From contig JAKSUA010000012.1 in NCBI GenBank assembly GCA_024409235.1, positions 918 through 64,917 on the forward strand: a stretch of 64,000 nt of DNA, in the 5' to 3' direction. A program made the translations under genes and the position numbers. This document shows positions 1-17,292 of the stretch, in pieces (position 1 is the stretch's first letter; each line of letters begins with the position of its first letter). A model generated the notes under the pieces. That model was given only the letters and a program-made list of their open reading frames with translations, had not been told where the DNA came from and searched no databases. The DNA comes from Bacteroidales bacterium (GTDB taxonomy: Bacteria > Bacteroidota > Bacteroidia > Bacteroidales > UBA1715).

Positions 1-3000
1 GACATTTCTATCGTTTGTAATGAGAATCCTAAAATTGAAGAACTTCCGCTTGTTGTAGTTACGCTAATGCCATCAGGCAAATCTATACCTACAATAAGAT
101 TATCCATCGGTTCTAATGAATTGTTCGTTATCGTTACTGTAATTTGTCCTTCGGCAATTCCTCCCGACTGAATAGCAGTAAATGATGAACTTGCAGCCGT
201 TACACCTACCATTTGTATTTGTTCAAGACCTTCAAGAGGTAAATGATATAAGAATTTTTTTTCTTGTAGTTCGCCACAATTTCCCAATGCAGAGACCTTA
301 AATTCTATCGGTTCAATCACGGTATTGTCAGTGCAATTAACAACTAATGAAAAGGATGAATTAATAATATTATTATTGTCTATTCGAAACGGTAATTCTG
401 CCTCACTTTCGTCCCCTATGAGTTTTTTCGAATAAACAGCGTTTGTATCTTTATCTTTGATATTTGCAAGTACATCATCCAAATTTATATTTATTCTTTT
501 ATGGTTGTATTCGTTATAAATTAAGTTATTTGCAATATTTACACCAGTTGGGAAAGATTTCTCCGACATTATTAATCCAACATTAGAAAGATTTGCCCTG
601 CCTGAATTATAAATATCAAGATGAATCGGTATTTCCTGACATAATTTGAATTTTGTACCATCTGTTGGATAACTTGCTTCTGCAACAAGCACAGCCTCCA
701 TATTTTCAAGTTCCAATTGAGTAAAGAAATTATTGCAGTTTCGCAATTCAAATTCTTCGGCAATATTTGCCGTATTTATAATATCTTCACAAGTCCAAAT
801 TGCAGTCACATCCAAATAACTTGTCCCCACTCCCGTACAACCACTCATTGTGATAGTAACTCTTACAGGAATATTATTATTAACAATAATTTTACCAATA
901 TTCACATAAATAATATCACTATTGGTGGGATATTCTATAAAAGAAATATCTTCATCATTAACTGTGATTCGTGCAACTTGTAACCCTGTCACATTATTTT
1001 CATTCGGTTTTATCCGTAGAGTTACATTTGGAGCATCTGCATTGCCAACATTTTTTACAAATACATTCCATGTTGTAAGTCTGGAAACGCCCTGTTCAAC
1101 AGAAGAATTCATTTCAATAATAGGAGCGTATATAGTCTGCACAGAGGCAAGATCATGAGTAAAAGTTTCATTTTCAGAACATGAAGCATAGTAATCACTA
1201 TATGTATATGAACCTTTTAATGTTCCGTTATACGAACTATCACCTGTTACACAAAGTGCACGTGCATTTATGCTAAATTGAGCTCTCTGGGTTGTCGTTC
1301 TGGTAGCAAAGCCCACTTGATTTTCTATATTTGTTTCAAATGCATTCCCCACTTCCGACGGTGTCGTGTAGTAGAAACCTTCAACGGCAGGAAGTTGAAC
1401 ATTGAGTAATCGTACAGGGTGGTTTATTACAGTTTCTGCAGATTGAGTAGTCGTTATAGAAGCAGTTATGTTCTCAGAAACTCTTGTAGGATAGAGTGTA
1501 GAAGAATTATGAGTAGGTTCTGGGTCAAATACAACCAATGAAGAACCTTTACTATTTGCTGTATGAATGATATTTTCGTCATCTTCTATAGCAAACTCCA
1601 CACGTAGGTTACAGTCGCTCCTATTGGGCAGAGAGTGATTCCCCTTTACAAAAACCTCTGCTGTCAATTGTAAAGGAATATGATTCAATGTTCCAGAGCA
1701 TGGGAACGACATCTCATTGGATGCCCAAGCAATACCATTATTAATCACATTTTCACTTAATGGCAATATAGTATATGACGAACCATTTACAGAAATAGAA
1801 CATGAAACTGATTCCAATTGTAAATTTCCTTCCAAATCATATACTCGTGCTATAATTCTCCGAGGCATAGGACATGTATCATTACATAGATATGCAAGTT
1901 CACCAATTGCGTTAACAGTAAACGTTTCACAGGTGTTTATTTCTTGAGGAACGACGGAAGAAACCTCAATTGTATGAACAGACATGCAGGTGTTACCTTG
2001 CAAAGAGTCAGGACATTCAACAATAGAATTTCCCATTTTGTTATCGCTGATATAGAATTCGTCGCAATCATTGGTTTTAACTACAAGATTGAATAATTGC
2101 GGGTTATAGCATGATGCTATGATATCTATGGAATCTGAAGATCTTATGTTGCTATTCGTTCTTTCATATCTTTTGACTATTGTACTATCATACATAATAC
2201 CTATGTAATCAACATCCATAAAACCCCTTCCTTGTTGAAAAAAATTTTGTGTGGACAAATTTACATCAACATTATATGTTGCTACATCACCACTTTTGCT
2301 ATCGGTTGGAGAGGTTACAGAAAATGAGTTCACATAGAGACGACTCGCCACAGAATAAGACCCCGATATTGTTCGTTCCTCTACAGTTTCACCCCTTAAA
2401 ATAATCCAAAACATTACTTTGTCAACATTTCTAAAAAATCTTGCTCTGACACGAATTATACAACTATCTTGAGGTATTAAATCAGGAGTCCCATCGCCAT
2501 CAACATCAGCAGTTGGAAGCAAATAGTTCTTTTTTGAATCTGGGACCAATTCCATTCCGTTATATTGTACGGAGCTAACTATATATTCATTTCCCTCCCC
2601 AGAAAAATAAAAATATGCATTTTTTAGGGTATTTGTTAGTTCTGTATTTTGTGTGGCATTTTTTATGACAACATCACATATAAATTCCCTTCCGCAATAA
2701 TTAGCCTGTTGTATTATAGTGCCATCAACTATTAACTCAATATTAGGTTCGTTACATTGATAATCACAAATTGCCGATGCATTTATTTGTTCATTACATA
2801 CATCAGAGCCATTCTTTACTTGGGCAAGATATTTTGCCTGTGTTTGTAAATAGAATTTCGTTGGTATGAAAGAAACGACAACATTCAATTGTTGATTTGC
2901 ATCAAATGTATCACCCAATCCCGCCTGTTGAAAATCGGAAGAAGAAAGGTCAATGTAATATTTCCCATCTTCTACTTCTGCGTTTCGGAACTGTCCTCCA

Positions 3001-3686
3001 ACAACAGAAAATTTAACATCTGAAAATGCATCAACATTTTGCATAAGTAGCATTGCCACACGCAAATTGGAAATAGAACCTGCACCTGCTGCGTTTTTTA
3101 TAGTAAACGTATCTGTTACAGGTGTTTGCCATACTATTTCTTTTATATTATTGTGTACATTACTATTCGCTTTACCAATTGTGAGAGATAAACTTGGAAT
3201 TTCTAATTTAAAATCATTTGTTTTTTTCTCTAGGTTTTTAATCGTATCGTGTTCCGTATAATTTATCAGCAAATTATTAGAGAAGAACACCGAGAATTGA
3301 TTGGAGATATTTGTTGGCACGGCATCACAATTAACTCGTATGCAGTAATTTAACAGATACGATTCGGCTGGTTTTAACGTATCGTTTAACTGCATTGAAA
3401 CTGAGTTAGACGCCAATGTTGTCCCGTTTTTTACCAAAGACAACGAAACCAAATCGAAACCTTCGGGTATTTGCAGTTGTATACTGTCAATAAACATACC
3501 GCTACCGTCGGTGGCTGTATTGGCAATGTTCGTAACAAAACGGGCTTGCTCATTTCCTGCAAAATTCATTGGTTCTGATGGATTGGTAGTTGCGACATTC
3601 AATGCCGTGTGTTGTTGCTGAGCAAATGCAACACTAAAGATTCCAACTACAAAACAGAATGTTAAGAATAAATGTTTGAGTTTCAT
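1..3686 (-). CDS. Large secreted/surface protein (>1,228 aa, 3' end outside window), adhesin- or T9SS-cargo-like, with Ig-like/DUF11-like segments
   Basis: Not in the ORF track (no stop inside the window). Manual translation from ATG 3686: MKLKHLFLTFCFVVGIFSVAFA-QQQHT (signal peptide, Gln at +1). The frame was open wherever spot-checked down to position 3. Contains DVDGDGTPD (~2480-2510) and ITVTITNNSLEPMDNLIVGIDLPDGISV near the edge. Confidence 0.85.
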   Translation of the reverse strand, partial: MKLKHLFLTFCFVVGIFSVAFAQQQHTALNVATTNPSEPMNFAGNEQARFVTNIANTATDGSGMFIDSIQLQIPEGFDLVSLSLVKNGTTLASNSVSMQLNDTLKPAESYLLNYCIRVNCDAVPTNISNQFSVFFSNNLLINYTEHDTIKNLEKKTNDFKLEIPSLSLTIGKANSNVHNNIKEIVWQTPVTDTFTIKNAAGAGSISNLRVAMLLMQNVDAFSDVKFSVVGGQFRNAEVEDGKYYIDLSSSDFQQAGLGDTFDANQQLNVVVSFIPTKFYLQTQAKYLAQVKNGSDVCNEQINASAICDYQCNEPNIELIVDGTIIQQANYCGREFICDVVIKNATQNTELTNTLKNAYFYFSGEGNEYIVSSVQYNGMELVPDSKKNYLLPTADVDGDGTPDLIPQDSCIIRVRARFFRNVDKVMFWIILRGETVEERTISGSYSVASRLYVNSFSVTSPTDSKSGDVATYNVDVNLSTQNFFQQGRGFMDVDYIGIMYDSTIVKRYERTNSNIRSSDSIDIIASCYNPQLFNLVVKTNDCDEFYISDNKMGNSIVECPDSLQGNTCMSVHTIEVSSVVPQEINTCETFTVNAIGELAYLCNDTCPMPRRIIARVYDLEGNLQLESVSCSISVNGSSYTILPLSENVINNGIAWASNEMSFPCSGTLNHIPLQLTAEVFVKGNHSLPNRSDCNLRVEFAIEDDENIIHTANSKGSSLVVFDPEPTHNSSTLYPTRVSENITASITTTQSAETVINHPVRLLNVQLPAVEGFYYTTPSEVGNAFETNIENQVGFATRTTTQRAQFSINARALCVTGDSSYNGTLKGSYTYSDYYASCSENETFTHDLASVQTIYAPIIEMNSSVEQGVSRLTTWNVFVKNVGNADAPNVTLRIKPNENNVTGLQVARITVNDEDISFIEYPTNSDIIYVNIGKIIVNNNIPVRVTITMSGCTGVGTSYLDVTAIWTCEDIINTANIAEEFELRNCNNFFTQLELENMEAVLVAEASYPTDGTKFKLCQEIPIHLDIYNSGRANLSNVGLIMSEKSFPTGVNIANNLIYNEYNHKRININLDDVLANIKDKDTNAVYSKKLIGDESEAELPFRIDNNNIINSSFSLVVNCTDNTVIEPIEFKVSALGNCGELQEKKFLYHLPLEGLEQIQMVGVTAASSSFTAIQSGGIAEGQITVTITNNSLEPMDNLIVGIDLPDGISVTTTSGSSSILGFSLQTIEM

Positions 3687-3726
3687 ATATAGTTTTATTT
3701 TTTAAAAAAGAAAATTTTCACGATTA

Positions 3727-3734
3727 CAAATATA
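3727..3734 (-). promoter_or_regulatory. Bacteroidota -7 promoter element for the large secreted protein
   Basis: TATATTTG on the minus strand matches TAnnTTTG, ~40 bp upstream of ATG 3686. Confidence 0.6.
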
Positions 3735-4032
3735 AAGACATTTTTGCAGAAAAAAATTTCTCTATTGGATTTTATTTTTTTGATTTTCATAAATCAAATT
3801 TTAGTGTAGAAAATACACTTTAAACAATGAAACATAATGAAAATCAAAATGTTTTAAGGGGGGAGAGGATTTTGTACTTGTTTGATAAAAGACATATGCA
3901 AAATCAAGAAAAAAATATAAAAATAAAAGAAATGCAAAAATATACATAAACTATTTTTTTACCATATAGTTTATGGTATAAATCAAAAACGAATGGTATT
4001 TTGTTGTGTTTAGTATAAAAAAGAAAATTTTT

Positions 4033-5298
4033 ATGGGTTATTACAAAGAAAAAGAGATAGAAGATTTTAGTCGAGGATATAGTTTACCTGATGAAAACAA
4101 ATGTTTATGTACGAGGCATTATAAAGACGTATATTTAAGGAATTATGTCCAAACACATAGTCATAAAGGTGTTTGCTGTTACTGTAATAAAAAGACAGAT
4201 GTAATCAACCTTTCTGATTTTGTGAAATATACGATGGACAGGATAAGACAATATTATACAACTCCTGATGAAGACGGACTATATTTAGAAAAAACGTTTT
4301 ATGATGATGATGAGATTATTCCAGGTTTGAAAAGAGTGAATGGTTATGTGACACGTGAAAATGCAAAAACTTTTGATAGTGTAGAAGAACTTTTAGTGGA
4401 AATAGATTTGATTTCTGATAACGAAGCATTAGACCAAGATATACAAAATTGTTTTCTTCAAGAAGAATGGATACAGAAAGATTCTGTTATTAGAACTGTA
4501 GATGAAGAATTGACAGACCTGTGGGGAGAATTTACATCTATGGTAATTCATCAAAGACGCTTTACCTTTTATATGTTACCTCAATTTGACGAAACTTATC
4601 ATTCAGAGGAAAATGGGCTACAAGATATTTTAACAGAAATATCAAAATCAATTAGTGATTTAGGGTTATATAACACATTGCAATGCAAAACAACGTTATA
4701 TAGGTGTCGATATATTGACAGCAAAAGCGAAGTGAAAGCGTTTGATGATTTGACATCGCCACCTAACGATAAGGCAAGTGAGAACCGAATGAATCCTATG
4801 GGTATATCTATGTTTTATGGCGCGTTTGACCGAGATACGGCAAAAGAAGAAGCACGAGATTCTGCAAAGAAATTTTGTGCAATAGGTGAATTTAATACAA
4901 AACAAGAACTGACAATATTAGATTTAACTCAACTTCCAGAAAAAAGTTTTTGGGCTAATCATTGGCAGGAACTGAGTTTTCTTCAGTCTTTCTCAAGAAA
5001 AATTTCAAAATCCATAGACGAAAAGAGTAAATATAGCTACGTACCAACACAAATTTTTGCAGAATACATTAGATATTGTTGTCGCCATAAAGGGAAGAAA
5101 ATAGATGGTATAATATATAAAAGTTCAAAGGGCGTAATGAGTAAAAATATTGTGCTGTTTTACGACCAAAAAGACAGTGCAAACGTGTTGGAACTGAAGA
5201 ATTGGGAGATACAGAATAATAAAACGAGGAATTTGTCGCTGATATTTGACAATCCTCCATCATTAGTAGTAAAAAAGTATGATGGAAAGATAGTTTAG
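4033..5298 (+). CDS. RES-domain protein with N-terminal Cys/His Zn-ribbon-like region (HEPN/RES-associated NTD type)
   Basis: CLCTRH...CCYC N-terminus; RES motifs LYRCR, NRMNPMGISMFYGA...TAKEE, YVPTQIFAEYIR...DGIIYKSS. ATG 4033 preferred over GTG 4006. Confidence 0.85.
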   Translation: MGYYKEKEIEDFSRGYSLPDENKCLCTRHYKDVYLRNYVQTHSHKGVCCYCNKKTDVINLSDFVKYTMDRIRQYYTTPDEDGLYLEKTFYDDDEIIPGLKRVNGYVTRENAKTFDSVEELLVEIDLISDNEALDQDIQNCFLQEEWIQKDSVIRTVDEELTDLWGEFTSMVIHQRRFTFYMLPQFDETYHSEENGLQDILTEISKSISDLGLYNTLQCKTTLYRCRYIDSKSEVKAFDDLTSPPNDKASENRMNPMGISMFYGAFDRDTAKEEARDSAKKFCAIGEFNTKQELTILDLTQLPEKSFWANHWQELSFLQSFSRKISKSIDEKSKYSYVPTQIFAEYIRYCCRHKGKKIDGIIYKSSKGVMSKNIVLFYDQKDSANVLELKNWEIQNNKTRNLSLIFDNPPSLVVKKYDGKIV

Positions 5299-5449
5299 AG
5301 GATAAATGGGATAAAATTGTAAAAACAAGTGATATGAAAAACCTAATTTTAGTAGGATATATGTTTTTTTTTATTTCTATCAATTTTTCAAATAGTAGTA
5401 ACGTTTTTGAAGAAAATTTCGTATATTGTAGAAAAAATATATTAAAATT

Positions 5450-6127
5450 ATGAATGGTATCATTGCAATAATAACAGATGTTTTAACTTGGATTCCCTAT
5501 TTAGTAATCTTGGTGTTGTTCTTTAGCAAGAAAGTTCTTAACTTTGATATTATAGATTATTTCAGGGATAAGAATATTCGGCATTACCAAGCAGAGTTAG
5601 ACAAAGAGTTGGAAAATCACAAAATAGAATTAGAAAAGGATTTGGAAAACTACAAGTCGGAACTTGAGGCAAAGAAACTTGAATTACAGGAGAGATTAAC
5701 ATTTCAGATAGAGTGCAATAAAATAAAGTTGGAACCATTACAAGCAGAAAGATTGACAGCCATTAAGGACGTTTATGCGGAATTGACAAAATTGTATGGT
5801 AATGTAAAAGGCTATACTGCATTATTTAGACCTGCCAATGGAAAAAGTAAAGAGGAGCAAATAGAAGACATCAACAACAGCCTAAAGAATCTTTCTGAAT
5901 GTTGGATAAGTAGAAAATTATTTTTCCCAAAAGAAATGGCAGACTTAATAGATTCATTTATAAGAGAATGTTGCTCAAAAGCACGTTTAACATCATGGAT
6001 AGGAACATCTCCAGGGAAAGAGGCTTGGAAAGAACAGGAGAAAATTGATAAATACGTCACGGAAGATATGCCTAAGGTATTGAATGCCATAGAGGATAAA
6101 TTTAGGAAAATTCTTGGCATAGAATAA
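5450..6127 (+). CDS. Hypothetical protein: N-terminal TM helix followed by coiled coil
   Basis: Hydrophobic residues 3-26; ELDKELENHKI/ELEKDLENYKS/ELEAKKLELQE repeats. Confidence 0.75.
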   Translation: MNGIIAIITDVLTWIPYLVILVLFFSKKVLNFDIIDYFRDKNIRHYQAELDKELENHKIELEKDLENYKSELEAKKLELQERLTFQIECNKIKLEPLQAERLTAIKDVYAELTKLYGNVKGYTALFRPANGKSKEEQIEDINNSLKNLSECWISRKLFFPKEMADLIDSFIRECCSKARLTSWIGTSPGKEAWKEQEKIDKYVTEDMPKVLNAIEDKFRKILGIE

Positions 6128-6157
6128 ATTCAGAAACAAATTTATTTATAGTATTTC

Positions 6158-6380
6158 GACCTTTCTTTGAGCAAATTAAACTGCGAATCGACCAAAATCC
6201 GACAATTTTAGACCGTGAACCGATAAAAAACTGACAAGGAATTGACGGTGATTTGACTCAAAACGTCAATTCACAATCAAATCACGGTCAAAGCCCAATC
6301 AAATCACCGTCGATTCATAGTCAAATCACAGTCTAAATTGGTCAACGCACAATCAAGTCACGGTCAAAGCACTGTCGAAC
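6158..6380. repeat. Bidirectional array of ~21 degenerate 11-bp units (consensus ~RTCAAATCACN) around a TTGAC-N7-GTCAA dyad
   Basis: GA dinucleotides at 6158, 6169, 6190, 6201, 6211, 6222, 6233, 6244, 6255; TC dinucleotides at 6266, 6277, 6288, 6299, 6310, 6321, 6332, 6342, 6353, 6364, 6375. Confidence 0.85.
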
Positions 6381-7573
6381 TAATGTGCAAGCACGTAATC
6401 TATAACTTTTCGGTTGGCTTCGTCGGTTCGTTTCCAATCGTATGAAATATAATGTCGTCCCGCCACGCTTTGGTCGGTGTGTCCCAACGATTTTGAGATG
6501 ACCTTTTCGTCAATGCCAAGTTGGTCGGCATACGTTGCCCACGAATATCGGGCGTAATACATAGAAAGTTCAGGGTAGCCAATTCGTTTCCCTATTTCTT
6601 TTATTCGATGTTTCAGATAGCCATTAAATGTTTCATAGTCTGTTTTATATGTTTCGGCAAGATTTACAATATAATTCACCCCTTCATATTTATCAATAAT
6701 TGCTTTTGCTTCGGGTTGAAGTTTTAGTTTTATAGGGTCGGGTTCGTGGTGAGCAATCTTTTTGCGAACAAAAACAAGACGGTCTTTTTTTAACACCTCT
6801 TTTTTCCACGAAAAAATATCGTTTACATTAACTCCGCAGAGATAAAACGAAAGTAGAAACATATCACGAGCCAATTCTCGAAGTTTTTCTTGCTTCGTAA
6901 ACTTCAAATCTTGTAATTTTTGCATATACTCTAATGGCAAATACTCCTTTTCTTTGTGTACAACTTTTATTTTGAACTTGCGGAATGGATAACAATCTGT
7001 TAGTTCATCATCAATGGCACGGTTAAAAATGGTACGTATGTTACGAAAATTAATTCCACGAGCCGACACCCCCATTGTCTTACTCCATTTATCATCCATT
7101 GAGTGAAGTACGCCTGCTGTTATGTCTTCAAACAGAACCGTTTTACCGCCAAAAAATTCGTCAACCAAACGAAGTGTGTATTCATAAACACGTCGAGTTG
7201 CACCTTGATATTTTTCTGCGTGTTTCTTTGCATACGATGTAAAACTAACATCAGACAAATTGTTGATTTCTTCACTCAACATCATTTTTTTCAATTCCAC
7301 AGCAGATAATTTAGCGGAACGTCCTTTCAGTGCATTTAAGCGAGCACGGTATTCTGTCAATAGGGAATACAATTCTGCATTTAATGATTTTGCATTTGGA
7401 TTTGAAAGACGAATCGGACGTTTCTCGTCTTGTGCGTTATAGTCCTCCTCCTTAATAAAAACACCCGATGAAAATGATGTTGGTTTTGTGTTATGCACCA
7501 TTCTAAAAATTAAAGGGCATTTGTTGTCCTTGTTTCTGTATCGAGAATCTAATACCAAATTGATTGTTGCCAT
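6380..7573 (-). CDS. Tyrosine recombinase/phage-type integrase (arm-binding NTD, SAM-like core-binding domain, catalytic domain)
   Basis: MATINLVLDSR...PLIFRM arm-binding-type N-terminus; RNIRTIFNRA; FYLCGVNVND; YYARYSWAT; LGH; RHY. Lies directly downstream of tRNA-Gly. Confidence 0.93.
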   Translation of the reverse strand: MATINLVLDSRYRNKDNKCPLIFRMVHNTKPTSFSSGVFIKEEDYNAQDEKRPIRLSNPNAKSLNAELYSLLTEYRARLNALKGRSAKLSAVELKKMMLSEEINNLSDVSFTSYAKKHAEKYQGATRRVYEYTLRLVDEFFGGKTVLFEDITAGVLHSMDDKWSKTMGVSARGINFRNIRTIFNRAIDDELTDCYPFRKFKIKVVHKEKEYLPLEYMQKLQDLKFTKQEKLRELARDMFLLSFYLCGVNVNDIFSWKKEVLKKDRLVFVRKKIAHHEPDPIKLKLQPEAKAIIDKYEGVNYIVNLAETYKTDYETFNGYLKHRIKEIGKRIGYPELSMYYARYSWATYADQLGIDEKVISKSLGHTDQSVAGRHYISYDWKRTDEANRKVIDYVLAH

Positions 7574-7598
7574 AGTTCTATCTCTTTTTATGTTAAAA

Positions 7599-7670
7599 TT
7601 TTTCGCAAGTTTTTCGCAAGTTTTTTCGGTTTACACCTATTTACGTTATTTTACATAAATTTTCCTAACT
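7599..7670. repeat. Tandem TTTTTCGCAAG x2 (11-bp period) plus TTAC motifs at 10-bp period; candidate att-arm sites
   Basis: tttttcgcaag-tttttcgcaag-ttttttcgg, then ttacacctat/ttacgttatt/ttacataaat/tttcctaact. Confidence 0.6.
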
Positions 7671-7752: not shown

Positions 7753-7762
7753 ATTATCAGTG

Positions 7763-7835
7763 AGCGGGAAACGAGACTCGAACCCGCGACCCTTAGCTTG
7801 GAAGGCTAATGCTCTACCAACTGAGCTACTCCCGC
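7763..7835 (-). tRNA. tRNA-Gly (TCC)
   Basis: GCGGGAGTAGCTCAGTTGGTAGAGC...CTTCCAA...GGTTCGAGTC...TTCCCGCT cloverleaf. Confidence 0.97.
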
Positions 7836-7840
7836 TTGAG

Positions 7841-7922
7841 TGGGGATGGGTGGACTCGAACCACCGAACTCGAAAGAGGAGAGATTTACAGTCTCTTGTC
7901 GTTGCCGCTGGACAACATCCCC
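7841..7922 (-). tRNA. tRNA-Tyr (GTA)
   Basis: GGGGATG/CATCCCC acceptor stem, AGAGA-CTGTAAA-TCTCT anticodon arm, long variable arm. Confidence 0.95.
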
Positions 7923-7935
7923 AAACAAAAAATTG

Positions 7936-8009
7936 AGCCTCTTGTCGGATTCGAACCAACGACCCCGAGATTACAAATCACGTGCTCTGGCCAGCTGAGC
8001 TAAAGAGGC
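7936..8009 (-). tRNA. tRNA-Thr (TGT)
   Basis: GCCTCTTTAGCTCAGCTGG...TTTGTAA...GTTCGAATC...AAGAGGCT. Confidence 0.96.
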
Positions 8010-8052
8010 AATTCTTGTTTATGTAAAGAACGTTGCTTTCGTAAAAGCAGTG

Positions 8053-8060
8053 CAAATGTA
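8053..8060 (-). promoter_or_regulatory. -7 promoter element of the tRNA cluster
   Basis: TACATTTG on the minus strand with TTG ~20 bp upstream. Confidence 0.65.
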
Positions 8061-8163
8061 AGAAAATTTTTATTTGTGTCAATAGTTTTGAAAAAAATAA
8101 CAAAAAAAAATATTCATCACAAATCTTTTCTATTTTCGCATTCGTAAAAAATACGGTGTTGCT

Positions 8164-9747
8164 ATGGCTACAAATGCTTTGATTTCTGTACAAAAATGTC
8201 GTATAGAAAGTAATGAAAAAATAGTTGTAAATGATTTGTCATGGGAAATGAATGATGGTGAATCATGGCTGATAATTGGTCCAAATGGCGGCGGAAAGGC
8301 GGAGTTTGTCAATGCTCTTGCGGGAAAAATGTCTTTTGTGCCAAATGTTTCGGATGAAGGATGTTTTTTTACTGCTTTCGGGGATTCTGTGGAAATGGTT
8401 TCGTTGGAACGTGCTGCAAAGTTAATCGAAGAAGAAAGAAATAATGATGAAAGTGATTATGTTGAAGGTGGGGTGGATATTGGACGTACAGGACGCCGTT
8501 TTATTGCGGAAGGTGTTGTTGGACCGCTGAAAAGGACGGACGCTTTGCCTCAATGGGCGGAATGTTTGGAAACGCATTTTGCTGTAAAATTGTGCGGGGT
8601 AGAGAAAATTTTGGACCGTGGCTTAAAATATATGTCAACGGGTGAAATCCGGAGAACTTTGTTGGTGAGAGCTTTGGTTTCAGGGAAAAAATTACTTGTT
8701 CTAAGCGATCCTTTTGCTGGACTTGATGCCGAAAGCAGAAAAATATTATTTGATTTCTTTGCTGAGATTGTTCTTGCACAACAGAATGGGAACTCAAAAT
8801 ATCCACATATTATATTATGTATGGAACGCTGGAATGAAATTCCTGAATCAATTACGAATGTGTTGAGATTTGAAGGAAAGAAAATAACGTTTTGTGGAAA
8901 AAAGGAAGATTATGCCGTTCAGTTCAAGGAAAAGAATGCTCAGAACGAGTCTGAGAGAACATTGAAAAAAGAAAATCTGTCTTCAACCTTAAATACTACT
9001 ATAGAAAAGACAATTCCTTTGCAGACGGAAAAGTCAACGGTAACAGAAGAAATTCTTGTAGAGATGAATAATGTAAACGTTGGCTGGAGTGATCATAAGG
9101 TTTTGATTGACTTAAATTGGAAACTTAAAAAAGGGGAACATTGGTTGGTGCGTGGCCCTAATGGATCGGGCAAAACAACGTTTTTGGAATTAATAACAGG
9201 CGATAATATGCAGGTGTATTGTAATGATGTCCGTCTGTTTGGAAAAAAAAGAGGTTCGGGTGAGTCTATTTGGGACATCAAACAAAAATTGGGCATTGTC
9301 TCATACCGTTTGCATGTGGAATACCGTATGGTAGGAGGTACTAACTTGCGGAATCTGATTGTTTCTGGATTTAGAGATTCCATTGGCTTGTATGGTGCCG
9401 CAACTGGTGTGGAAGCAACAATTGCAGACCAATGGTTAGCATTAGGTGGATTTGCTGGAAGGGAACGTGAATTGTTTCGTGACCTGAGTTATGGTGAGCA
9501 ACGTGCAATATTAATATTACGTTCTGTTGTAAAATGTCCTCCTATTCTGATATTGGACGAACCTTGTCATGGCCTTGATGAGGAATATCGTGAAAAGATT
9601 CTTAATCTCTTGGAATTGATAGCTGAAAAAGGAACTACAACAATGCTTCATGTGACTCATGATCCTAGCGAACGCTTAAGCTGTGAACATCATATTTTAG
9701 AATTACATCCAGGAGAAACTCCCATGTATAAAATATTAGAAATGTAG
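8164..9747 (+). CDS. ModF-like double ABC ATPase
   Basis: Walker A GPNGGGKA and GPNGSGKT; signatures MSTGEIRR and LSYGEQR; LILDEP. Confidence 0.85.
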   Translation: MATNALISVQKCRIESNEKIVVNDLSWEMNDGESWLIIGPNGGGKAEFVNALAGKMSFVPNVSDEGCFFTAFGDSVEMVSLERAAKLIEEERNNDESDYVEGGVDIGRTGRRFIAEGVVGPLKRTDALPQWAECLETHFAVKLCGVEKILDRGLKYMSTGEIRRTLLVRALVSGKKLLVLSDPFAGLDAESRKILFDFFAEIVLAQQNGNSKYPHIILCMERWNEIPESITNVLRFEGKKITFCGKKEDYAVQFKEKNAQNESERTLKKENLSSTLNTTIEKTIPLQTEKSTVTEEILVEMNNVNVGWSDHKVLIDLNWKLKKGEHWLVRGPNGSGKTTFLELITGDNMQVYCNDVRLFGKKRGSGESIWDIKQKLGIVSYRLHVEYRMVGGTNLRNLIVSGFRDSIGLYGAATGVEATIADQWLALGGFAGRERELFRDLSYGEQRAILILRSVVKCPPILILDEPCHGLDEEYREKILNLLELIAEKGTTTMLHVTHDPSERLSCEHHILELHPGETPMYKILEM

Positions 9748-16557: not shown

Positions 16558-17292
16558 ATGAATTCTTTTCGTCCATCAGGTTTTTCAATGTTAACTCCAG
16601 TTGTTAAGAATCTATTGGTTCTTAACATTGTTTGCTTTATTATAACCTGTTTCTTTGAAAGATTCGGTTATGATATTTCGAATGATTTAGGACTTCATTA
16701 CGTAAAATCACCAAGTTTTCGTCCAGTACAGTTTGTCAGCTATATGTTCATGCATGCAAACCTAGAACATATTTTTTTCAATATGTTGGCATTGTGGATG
16801 TTTGGTCATACTTTAGAGCAATATTGGGGTAGTAAGAAATTTCTTGTGTATTACCTGGCAACAGGTATTGGTGCTGGAATCATGCAGGTTTTGGTCGCAT
16901 ATATTCATTTGCAGACATTTGTAATTTCTGATGAAATGTGGGATATGGTTATAACTCAAGGAGATGACTTGTTGCGGTCTGGAAGAAATTGGATTGACGA
17001 TACTTTAGGAAGTGTCAATGCTATTGTGAATGGCTCAACTGTGGGTGCTTCGGGTGCTGTTTTTGGACTTTTAATGGCATTCGGTATGATGTTTCCTGAA
17101 GCTCAGATATACATTTATTTCGCAATTCCTGTCAAGGCAAAATGGTTCGTGATAATATATGGACTTATAGAACTATTCAGTGGAATACGCAATTCCGCAG
17201 GTGATAATACTGCTCATTTTGCACATCTTGGTGGTATGATATTCGGGTATATTTTAATCAAATACTGGCAGAAAAACGGCTCACGGTTTTGA
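16558..17292 (+). CDS. Rhomboid intramembrane serine protease (active-type)
   Basis: YMFMH...HIFFNM, GASG, AHFAHLGG. Confidence 0.93.
   Translation: MNSFRPSGFSMLTPVVKNLLVLNIVCFIITCFFERFGYDISNDLGLHYVKSPSFRPVQFVSYMFMHANLEHIFFNMLALWMFGHTLEQYWGSKKFLVYYLATGIGAGIMQVLVAYIHLQTFVISDEMWDMVITQGDDLLRSGRNWIDDTLGSVNAIVNGSTVGASGAVFGLLMAFGMMFPEAQIYIYFAIPVKAKWFVIIYGLIELFSGIRNSAGDNTAHFAHLGGMIFGYILIKYWQKNGSRF

Follow-up and report, generated by a model that had tools for sequence, protein, structure and literature searches.

Between a cargo gene and the 3' end of a tyrosine integrase gene, the window (the whole stretch of 64,000 nucleotides analysed here) carries a repeat lattice, that is, an imperfect palindrome of about 230 bp composed of about 20 units nTCnAnnCnCn in a 10.9-bp phase. 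The lattice is real, and it belongs to a family that is restricted to one genus, where it is found in tRNA-integrated defence islands. The way in which its sequence is preserved indicates that it is a selected and portable cis element. We tentatively suggest that it represents a protein-coated platform of double-stranded DNA, with its binder encoded elsewhere and its centre serving as a crossover joint; our confidence in this preferred reading falls somewhat short of even.

The periodic anatomy is apparent from the coordinates (Table 1). The half-sites of the central dyad are at the same time the first unit of each arm. Nine units of the right arm are 11 bp long and one is 10 bp (GTCTAAATTG), which gives a mean spacing of 10.9 bp between the TC starts, and the arm stops one base short of CTA, the minus-strand integrase TAG. 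A 23-bp near-duplicate (6272-6294 and 6348-6370) matches at 22 of 23 positions by reading, and the repeat search returned it as family D1 with 82% over 39 nt. For 6265-6338, TRF reported both period 11 (6.6 copies, 68% matches) and period 22 (3.1 copies, 76% matches). The right arm, the dyad and the near-duplicate had been described in an earlier, sequence-only reading, and re-reading the sequence confirmed all three. The left arm, which that reading took for the same motif inverted, is so in its inner units, the inner 50 bp being the best conserved part of the family; the outer units are degenerate, and it is there that the cargo junctions lie.

Table 1. Positions in the window of the lattice, its parts and the neighbouring island features.
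Feature	Position	Strand	Remarks
Lattice	6155-6379		between cargo ORF 5450-6127 (+) and integrase gene 6380-7573 (-)
Left arm	6155..6257		inverted units; minus-strand reading GTCAAATCACC, GTCAATTCCTT, GTCAGTTTTTT, ATCGGTTCACG, GTCTAAAATT and further units
Central dyad	6250..6272		GATTTGAC (6250-6257), TCAAAAC (6258-6264), GTCAATTC (6265-6272)
Right arm	6265..6379	+	ten head-to-tail units and terminal GTCGAA; consensus RTCAAATCACN
Tyrosine integrase, 397 aa	6380..7573	-	Arm-DNA-bind_5, Phage_int_SAM_5, Phage_integrase; natural stop abuts right arm
Direct repeats, two copies of TTTTTCGCAAG	7597..7626	+	upstream of the integrase gene
tRNA-Gly(TCC), tRNA-Tyr, tRNA-Thr	7762-8009	-	just upstream of the integrase gene
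tRNA-Gly(TCC), 3' 44 bases	7762..7805	-	exact repeat at G000:C15:37978-38021
Cargo ORF, 225 aa	5450..6127	+	no family match; ends just before left arm
Cargo HEPN/RES gene	4006..5298	+	HEPN/RES N-terminal domain 1 and RES domain
Large cargo ORF	3..3686	-	1228 aa in the window, 1554 aa in the L015 orthologue; no family match

Autocorrelation was compared with 1000 dinucleotide shuffles over lags 1 to 33. The lag-11 value is 0.455 for the whole lattice (z 6.2) and 0.571 for the right arm (z 6.1), with 0/1000 shuffles reaching these levels at any lag; for the left arm it is 0.418 (z 3.4), a level reached by 0/1000 shuffles at lag 11 and by 28/1000 at some lag. The 11-bp periodicity is significant against shuffled controls, and weaker in the left arm. 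Throughout the assembly of the window's genome, G000 (2,621,764 bases), a lag-11 identity of at least 0.55 over 99 bp was found only in the window array and in a paralogue on contig C15. Across this genome the bare 9-mer of the motif shows no enrichment (40 occurrences, 34.6 expected), which would leave a general host factor without other visible targets. No further dyad in a periodic context was found in this genome; the one at G000:C36:1492 lies inside a coding gene, lacks periodicity and is attributed to chance. DnaA, IHF, CRP and Chi-like sites, type III antitoxin repeats and Bacteroidota promoter motifs, considered by eye and from recall, fit the lattice poorly.

The 44-bp direct repeat of tRNA-Gly is the att core which bounds the island. 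Thirty bases of the repeat at 7597-7626 recur at G000:C15:38077-38106 (97%), 56 bp inside the other island end, and the island-end repeat TTTCGCAAGTTTTTCGCAAG is common to the C15 end and to the window segment preceding the integrase gene. By virtue of the shared tRNA copy and end repeat, the island can be traced from the end of C15 through the start of contig C4 to window position 7761, a length of about 12 kb. Its tRNA-proximal end carries the integrase gene and the lattice, with some 1.4 kb between the lattice and the att core. In tandem with this island is a second, decayed one, whose integrase gene, at C15:37453-37836, is truncated. The backbone order in the islands is tRNA, integrase, lattice and cargo; the left arm is invariably the side on which the variable defence cargo lies, and nearly every copy has a different cargo (the 225-aa ORF, a 114-aa ORF, a TIR protein of PDC-S35, WYL and SspBC are examples). 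In related contigs the HEPN/RES gene is present or absent as a module (joint 3857 to 5273). The 225-aa ORF was not found in any of the 13 further species of the genus, and for a cargo gene of this type a recombinant is therefore not recoverable elsewhere.

When the lattice was compared by BLAST with 24 genomes of the bacterial family, five matched, including G000, all of them from the window's genus (4/13 other species). Full copies occur in 3 of the 14 species of the genus and remnants in 2 more; two copies per genome, the maximum, are present in G000 and G010. A scan of the contig collection for the pattern TCAAATCAC-N13-TCAAATCAC gave 63 stretches, four of which stood out by lag-11 autocorrelation: two perfect microsatellites (L117, L088) and two members of the lattice family from Bacteroidales MAGs (L058, L089). 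Other stretches represented unrelated 22-bp repeats near NqrA, radical SAM, TonB receptor and other genes; the check extended to inspection of 15/63 stretches, ORFs for 11 of them and Pfam on 10 flanking ORFs from 7 loci, and one repeat upstream of an AAA_14/DUF4143 gene (L106) was judged a coincidence. The same kind of scan in metagenomes returned five stretches, all from the lattice family. Blastn revealed no similar DNA in the phage (50,697 records) and plasmid (72,556 records) collections, and the only two matches of the pattern in IMG/VR were both unrelated. No description of such a lattice was found in the part of the literature that was accessible.

Seven distinct full copies were distinguished: the window copy, L015, L120, L016, L017 (the same as L121), L122 (the same as L124) and L009. 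The first four occupy one common tRNA-Gly locus, with the integrase gene abutting the right arm. In L017/L121 the integrase is 43% identical to that of the window and adjoins tRNA-Met, and in L122/L124 it is 61% identical (tblastn) and adjoins tRNA-Arg. L009 is the C15 paralogue (about 16860-17165 of G000:C15); it has no integrase and is flanked by SspB and SspC on the left and by a PDC-S01 AAA_14/DUF4143 ATPase on the right. In three remnants (L018, L019 and L123), about 70 bp of the right arm are kept in a decayed tRNA-Arg island with no integrase, next to a fragment of the C15-copy neighbour gene and another PDC-S01 ATPase; the two ATPases found beside lattices share only 30% identity. Between the lattice and the integrase gene of L121 and L122, a stretch of about 240 bp forms a second phased array, which starts with an 11-10-11 palindrome and consists of units AAATGTCnnGG / AAACACGnCC (lag-11 identity 0.42-0.48). 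A small ORF at this place is a low-complexity translation of the second array and looks spurious.

Conservation within the family is position-specific. The dyad GATTTGRC-N7-GTCAAWTC is kept in all seven full copies with a spacer (6258-6264) that varies from copy to copy. The earlier proposal of a cis element that is conserved, not random, and lies within an island with an integrase is supported. Varying columns number 6/50 at unit positions 2, 3, 5, 8 and 10 and 28/59 elsewhere (Fisher p 6.7e-5). The sole length change among the copies is one whole 11-bp unit, in L122, and every copy retains one 10-bp unit per arm. Identity in the inner left arm ranges from 0.86 to 0.98 among the six integrase-linked copies; between close pairs this segment is the most conserved part, and the centre with right-arm units 1-3 is the least. 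A further match, X2 record 10, covers 6193-6257 alone (91%) and tells no more than that conservation is highest in the inner left arm.

The portability of the lattice is seen when it is compared with the adjacent genes. Between the window and L121, the lattices are 86% identical and the integrases 43%; between L121 and L122, the corresponding values are 85.5% (over 485 bp) and 47%, and in both pairs the integrase DNA aligns only in short stretches of 67-78%. Between G000 and G008, the integrase gene and lattice together are 97.4% identical over 1877 bp against 77% for the ABC-F core gene, and the cargo is unrelated beyond window position 6199. The non-motif positions of the lattice are far from saturated. 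Since the lattice is far better conserved than the adjacent integrase gene, its exchange between island lineages would be the simplest reading.

Breaks in homology are found both at the outer border and at the centre. Homology to the window ends at 6142 in L015, at 6199 in L016 and at 6158 in X3 record 18 and X7 record 28; the junctions in the outer left arm thus fall at 6142, 6158 and 6193-6199. X3 record 17 (35 kb) matches 5273-6257 with 12 differences in 985 bp, and X7 record 27 matches 5671-6257 with 6 differences in 587 bp (about 99% each). Both lose the match at 6257, the last base of the left half-site, as contigs rather than raw reads from two runs and possibly one lineage; the next ~1.9 kb is less than 90% window-like, and in the depth figures record 17 contributes nothing past 6257. 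L015 and L120 differ at 9 positions in 7687 bp, and 8 of these fall within 40 bp from the dyad over right-arm units 1-3, a patch that may alternatively reflect population heterogeneity or an assembly effect in the repeat. Two possible sources of the patch were rejected: an inverted centre, because by eye its sequence does not match the opposite arm in reverse complement, and gene conversion by the other array in the genome, because the L120 patch does not derive from L017. For the expectation that variants would break at 6258-6264, the outcome is a positive hint: the contigs from two runs and the L015/L120 patch agree with it, but most junctions lie in the outer left arm. These observations point, if thinly, to the centre as a preferred crossover site or conversion start.

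According to the reading that we prefer, the lattice would offer about 20 sites, one per helical turn, to a sequence-specific protein encoded away from it. The sites would be arranged head-to-tail in two arms and head-to-head at the 8-7-8 dyad, and the coating protein would fold or wrap both arms. The lattice would then represent a portable backbone module of small tRNA-integrating defence islands and a joint for cargo exchange between them, and crossovers at the centre and at the outer borders would place one lattice beside unrelated integrases and unrelated defence genes. We suppose that recombination proceeds from this nucleoprotein complex rather than from plain homology. Several facts speak against such a platform. 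Most junctions fall at varied positions of the outer left arm, where ordinary homologous or illegitimate recombination between conserved ends could be sufficient; no binder is common in cis, 5/9 homologues of the integrase in the genus have no lattice, and the distribution is narrow.

By their repeat organisation, R1 parC, the Cox/Apl arrays, iterons and recombination sites with accessory sites all appear analogous to the lattice, and from each of the systems compared it departs in a defining feature of membership that was testable. P2 Cox, 186 Apl and lambda Xis bind cooperatively to one-turn direct repeats by the integrase module and bend the DNA; their arrays comprise 3-7 boxes, situated either in an att arm or at a promoter, and the gene for the directionality factor adjoins int. 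In contrast, the lattice has about 20 units in two inverted arms remote from the att core, and no small DNA-binding (directionality-factor-like) gene common to lattice-bearing islands was found. The sole protein common to these islands is the integrase, in agreement with the earlier remark that no cognate DNA-binding gene is visible nearby, and the scanned neighbour genes include no rep, par, relaxase, terminase, excisionase or transposase family.

One alternative is that the lattice is a cis site (oriT-, pac- or iteron-like) that lets the island make use of a conjugative element, phage or replicon as helper, the helper protein coating the repeats and nicking or cutting the centre, which thereby becomes recombinogenic. 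The islands lack recognisable genes for their own transfer, replication or packaging as well as a cis-encoded binder, the same lattice accompanies different integrases within one host genus, and the variation begins at the dyad and extends to one side only, all of which would suit a helper. The 22-bp super-period resembles iterons, phased direct repeats of 17-22 bp such as the 22-bp iterons of theta plasmids, and 11-bp repeats are known from the pMV158 dso; the lattice shares with these origins the helically phased direct repeats, the super-period and a central dyad, but a rep gene is neither adjacent nor shared in the scanned flanks, and there are no plasmid or phage relatives. R1 parC, the type II centromere bound by ParR, has about ten 11-bp head-to-tail repeats in two blocks, with one small protein per repeat on one helix face; all its repeats run in the same direction, flank the parMR promoter and adjoin parR. 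The lattice has 11-bp phased repeats in common with parC, whereas its blocks are inverted around a dyad in a chromosomal island with no par gene among the scanned neighbours. The centromere or origin reading offered earlier thus gains no support from the gene content. More generally, relaxase, Rep, Par and terminase families are missing from the scanned neighbours, G000 contains no other dyad or lattice copy usable as a resident helper's own site, and the searches of phage, plasmid and IMG/VR sequences returned nothing related. We consider a helper site unlikely, although worth keeping in mind.

Alternatively, the lattice may be a selfish or neutral palindromic repeat of the foldback type, MITE-like with subterminal repeats, which was carried into the islands and has no role there. 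It shares with such elements the imperfect palindrome, the short tandem subrepeats in the arms and the terminal inverted repeats: the outer ends are inverted (TTCGAC..CTTTGA.C in the window, CCTCTTGAC with GTCAAGAGG in L017), and both are junctions with varying partners, namely the integrase gene, the second lattice and the two PDC-S01 ATPases. The presence of two copies in G000 and G010 and the narrow, patchy distribution would also be expected. However, no target-site duplication is visible at the borders, no transposase is associated, the copy number never exceeds two per genome, and the position relative to the integrase gene recurs in three integrase lineages. In addition, the position-specific constraint implies a binding function, though the binder could be a transposase. 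A foldback origin has, in our estimation, a rather low probability, comparable to that of a helper site.

The relation of the lattice to the integrase deserves a separate analysis. Usually the lattice abuts the integrase stop codon, and 5/7 full copies lie at an integrase 3' end. The fusion to the stop codon asserted in the sequence-only reading is nevertheless not general: in two lineages the ~240-bp second lattice intervenes, and L009 and the three remnants lie beside an ATPase. Nor did an 11-bp array prove to be a general trait of this integrase family. The genus has nine full-length homologues and one fragment; a lattice accompanies 4/9, and the 5/9 without it (56, 53, 54, 46 and 45% identity) include three at tRNA-Lys. 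Of 20 distant homologues (26-39% identical) from sampled genomes of the order, 19 had enough downstream sequence, and 0/19 reached a lag-11 value of 0.5 within 900 bp downstream; one distant homologue (L022) is followed by unrelated 22-bp repeats. The distribution of the lattice over the integrase tree requires no fewer than two gains or losses, and of 200 bootstrap trees 0% allow a single change.

Upstream of the integrase gene, every integrase lineage carries direct repeats of its own at 11-bp spacing, and each has its own tRNA target (Gly, Arg or Met). In the Gly lineage, the upstream repeats recur at the far island end, and the TTTTTCGCAAG repeats are candidate arm-type sites of its integrase. 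The earlier proposal of lambda-type arm sites in the lattice is at variance with this arrangement, in which the repeats of both ends have a different, lineage-specific motif. Since the integrase repeats are lineage-specific while the lattice motif is constant across the three lineages, the arm-binding domain of the integrase is unlikely to read the lattice, judging from these motifs.

This bears directly on a third alternative, in which the lattice is a secondary site of the resident tyrosine integrase, attP- or attI-like, with a dyad core and 7-bp overlap, the repeats serving as accessory integrase sites and the cargo being captured or swapped. Lambda attP, attI1 with DR1/DR2, the Tn4430 IRS and FRT have inverted half-sites around a 6-8-bp spacer and extra copies of the binding motif, and in the TnpI IRS, attI1 DR1/DR2 and FRT the core motif serves again at additional accessory sites. 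The lattice shares with them the half-sites around a spacer (8-7-8 with a variable spacer in 7/7 copies), and its size of about 230 bp, close to that of attP, and two inverted arms fit as well, as do the common position at the integrase 3' end, the status of the integrase as the sole common protein, and the homology break at 6257 with the central patch, which a crossover there would produce. On the other hand, the lattice units are far more numerous and regular than accessory sites. The repeats beside the 44-bp core at the island ends carry the integrase's own arm-like motif, and no hybrid-lattice pairs were found around cassettes. Closer relatives of the integrase have no lattice, and one full copy has no nearby integrase. 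We regard an integrase site as quite improbable.

A related possibility is that the lattice is the Bacteroidales counterpart of integron attI, a dedicated cargo-exchange site with a crossover core and about 20 phased accessory sites, at which a recombinase acting in trans, be it the island integrase or a different one, would exchange entire defence modules between islands at different tRNA genes. In the integron platform, an IntI-type integrase is divergent from attI and the cassettes are bounded by attC hairpins. By contrast, the integrase beside the lattice is of the Arm-DNA-bind_5/SAM_5 type and converges on it, and no lattice-like site, dyad or attC-like hairpin repeat was found at the borders of cargo modules. 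This version, too, strikes us as decidedly doubtful.

Finally, the element might be a long imperfect hairpin with no protein lattice, acting as an RNA 3' end or bidirectional terminator, or as single-stranded DNA or a cruciform, with the central variation due to palindrome instability. The earlier view that pairing between the arms is insufficient for a long hairpin needs correction, as strong folds are predicted: -82.4 kcal/mol for the minus-strand RNA (z -5.4 against shuffles) and -34.4 kcal/mol for the plus-strand single-stranded DNA (z -4.7). In the window, L015, L016 and L122, the genes on either side converge on the element, and a metatranscriptome contig covers 6163-6677, although it may be DNA carry-over and ends at strain-variable borders. 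Comparative data, however, do not support the fold: with RNAalifold on the seven copies the covariation term is +3.37, double changes affect 5/55 pairs, and the pairing is broken in many places. Conservation is unequal between the arms, left units 2-3 have no complement of CAC, and conservation tracks the position in the unit, not the pairing partner. Rfam at gathering scores detected only tRNAs, with two miRNA-hairpin look-alikes below threshold, and the genes flanking the C15 copy diverge rather than converge. A bare hairpin is the explanation to which we assign the least probability.

The rapid turnover of cargo in defence islands is an open question, and the lattice, a compact cis element with clear limits, lies precisely where conserved DNA gives way to variable DNA. 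Its reach is limited by the narrow distribution in one uncultured genus, and even if it were only a foldback repeat, it would still be a useful marker of island junctions. If the lattice were indeed a counterpart of attI, this would explain how one integrase–lattice backbone is combined with unrelated defence genes across species. Should a binder and crossover activity be found, the lattice would possibly provide a portable docking site for engineering, and it would represent a mechanism for the modular exchange of anti-phage genes among gut and rumen Bacteroidales.

The lattice, a two-armed array of ~11-bp repeats that ends at the integrase stop codon in the window, is accompanied in two loci by a second helically phased array, which separates the main lattice from the stop codon of the integrase (L121, next to tRNA-Met and also listed as L017, and L122, next to tRNA-Arg). 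Its units read AAATGTCnnGG and AAACACGnCC and recur every 10.5-11 bp or so, and the palindrome GAGACATTTGC-N10-GCAAATGTCTC forms the start of the array. The last two right-arm units are duplicated in L122, with one copy on each side of the second array, as if this array had been inserted into the right arm or deleted from it. A short run of AAAACnnnnnn x5 occurs 3' of the integrase of L128.

Features and their coordinates at the compared loci
Feature	Location	Position
Second helically phased array	L121 (oriented)	about 8000-8230
	L122	741-975
Direct repeats upstream of integrase	window	7597-7626
	L122	2215-2250
	L017, L127-L132	
AAA_14/DUF4143 ATPase	L009	8780-10201
	L018	892-2193
	L019	2749-4050
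Promoter and N-terminal module	window	3292-3875
	L015	4998-5344; 8230-8573
	L016 (reverse)	4157-4738
HEPN/RES gene	window	3857-5273
Decayed tandem island	G000:C15 (= L054 12420-13106)	37453-38106
Unoccupied tRNA-Arg	G000:C12	150669-150751

Just 5' of the start codon, every integrase lineage has two or three direct repeats, peculiar to that lineage and spaced by about 11 bp, and after them a GCACTTAC...GTAAGTGC hairpin adjoining the tRNA. A hairpin of this type also comes after the unoccupied tRNA-Arg. In another family of the order, a distant (34% identical) integrase at L022 has beside it a phased array unrelated to the lattice. This array consists of two neighbouring sets of four 22-bp direct repeats (lag-22 identity 0.80), located about 350-530 bp 3' of the gene, and every unit contains a palindrome (AAATGTACATTT and TCATATATGA).

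At tRNA-Gly, a second, decayed island stands in tandem with that of the window. Its truncated integrase is 31% identical to the window integrase (129 aa aligned), and the remnant is followed by the island's own set of TTTACCTCGG direct repeats and then by the 44-bp tRNA-Gly fragment bounding the window's island. HsdM, Fic, metallophosphatase and further defence-type genes separate the decayed island from the lattice copy on the same contig (L009).

Where lattice copies lack an integrase (L009, and the ~70-bp right-arm remnants of L018 and L019), AAA_14/DUF4143 ATPases come next on the right-arm side. The ATPase of L009, the one scanned with PADLOC, matches the candidate defence system PDC-S01. 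Identity between the ATPases of L009 and L018 is only 30%, so the right-hand flank of the lattice has been exchanged as well.

On the cargo side, the HEPN/RES gene constitutes a presence/absence module: in sequencing run X3, a 35-kb contig joins position 3857 to 5273 with 54 other letters between, and contigs of run X7 have similar joints. Three different cargo genes (1554, 426 and 353 aa) are each headed by a copy of one promoter and N-terminal coding module, the copies being 80-88% identical, which suggests effectors sharing a common head or regulatory region.
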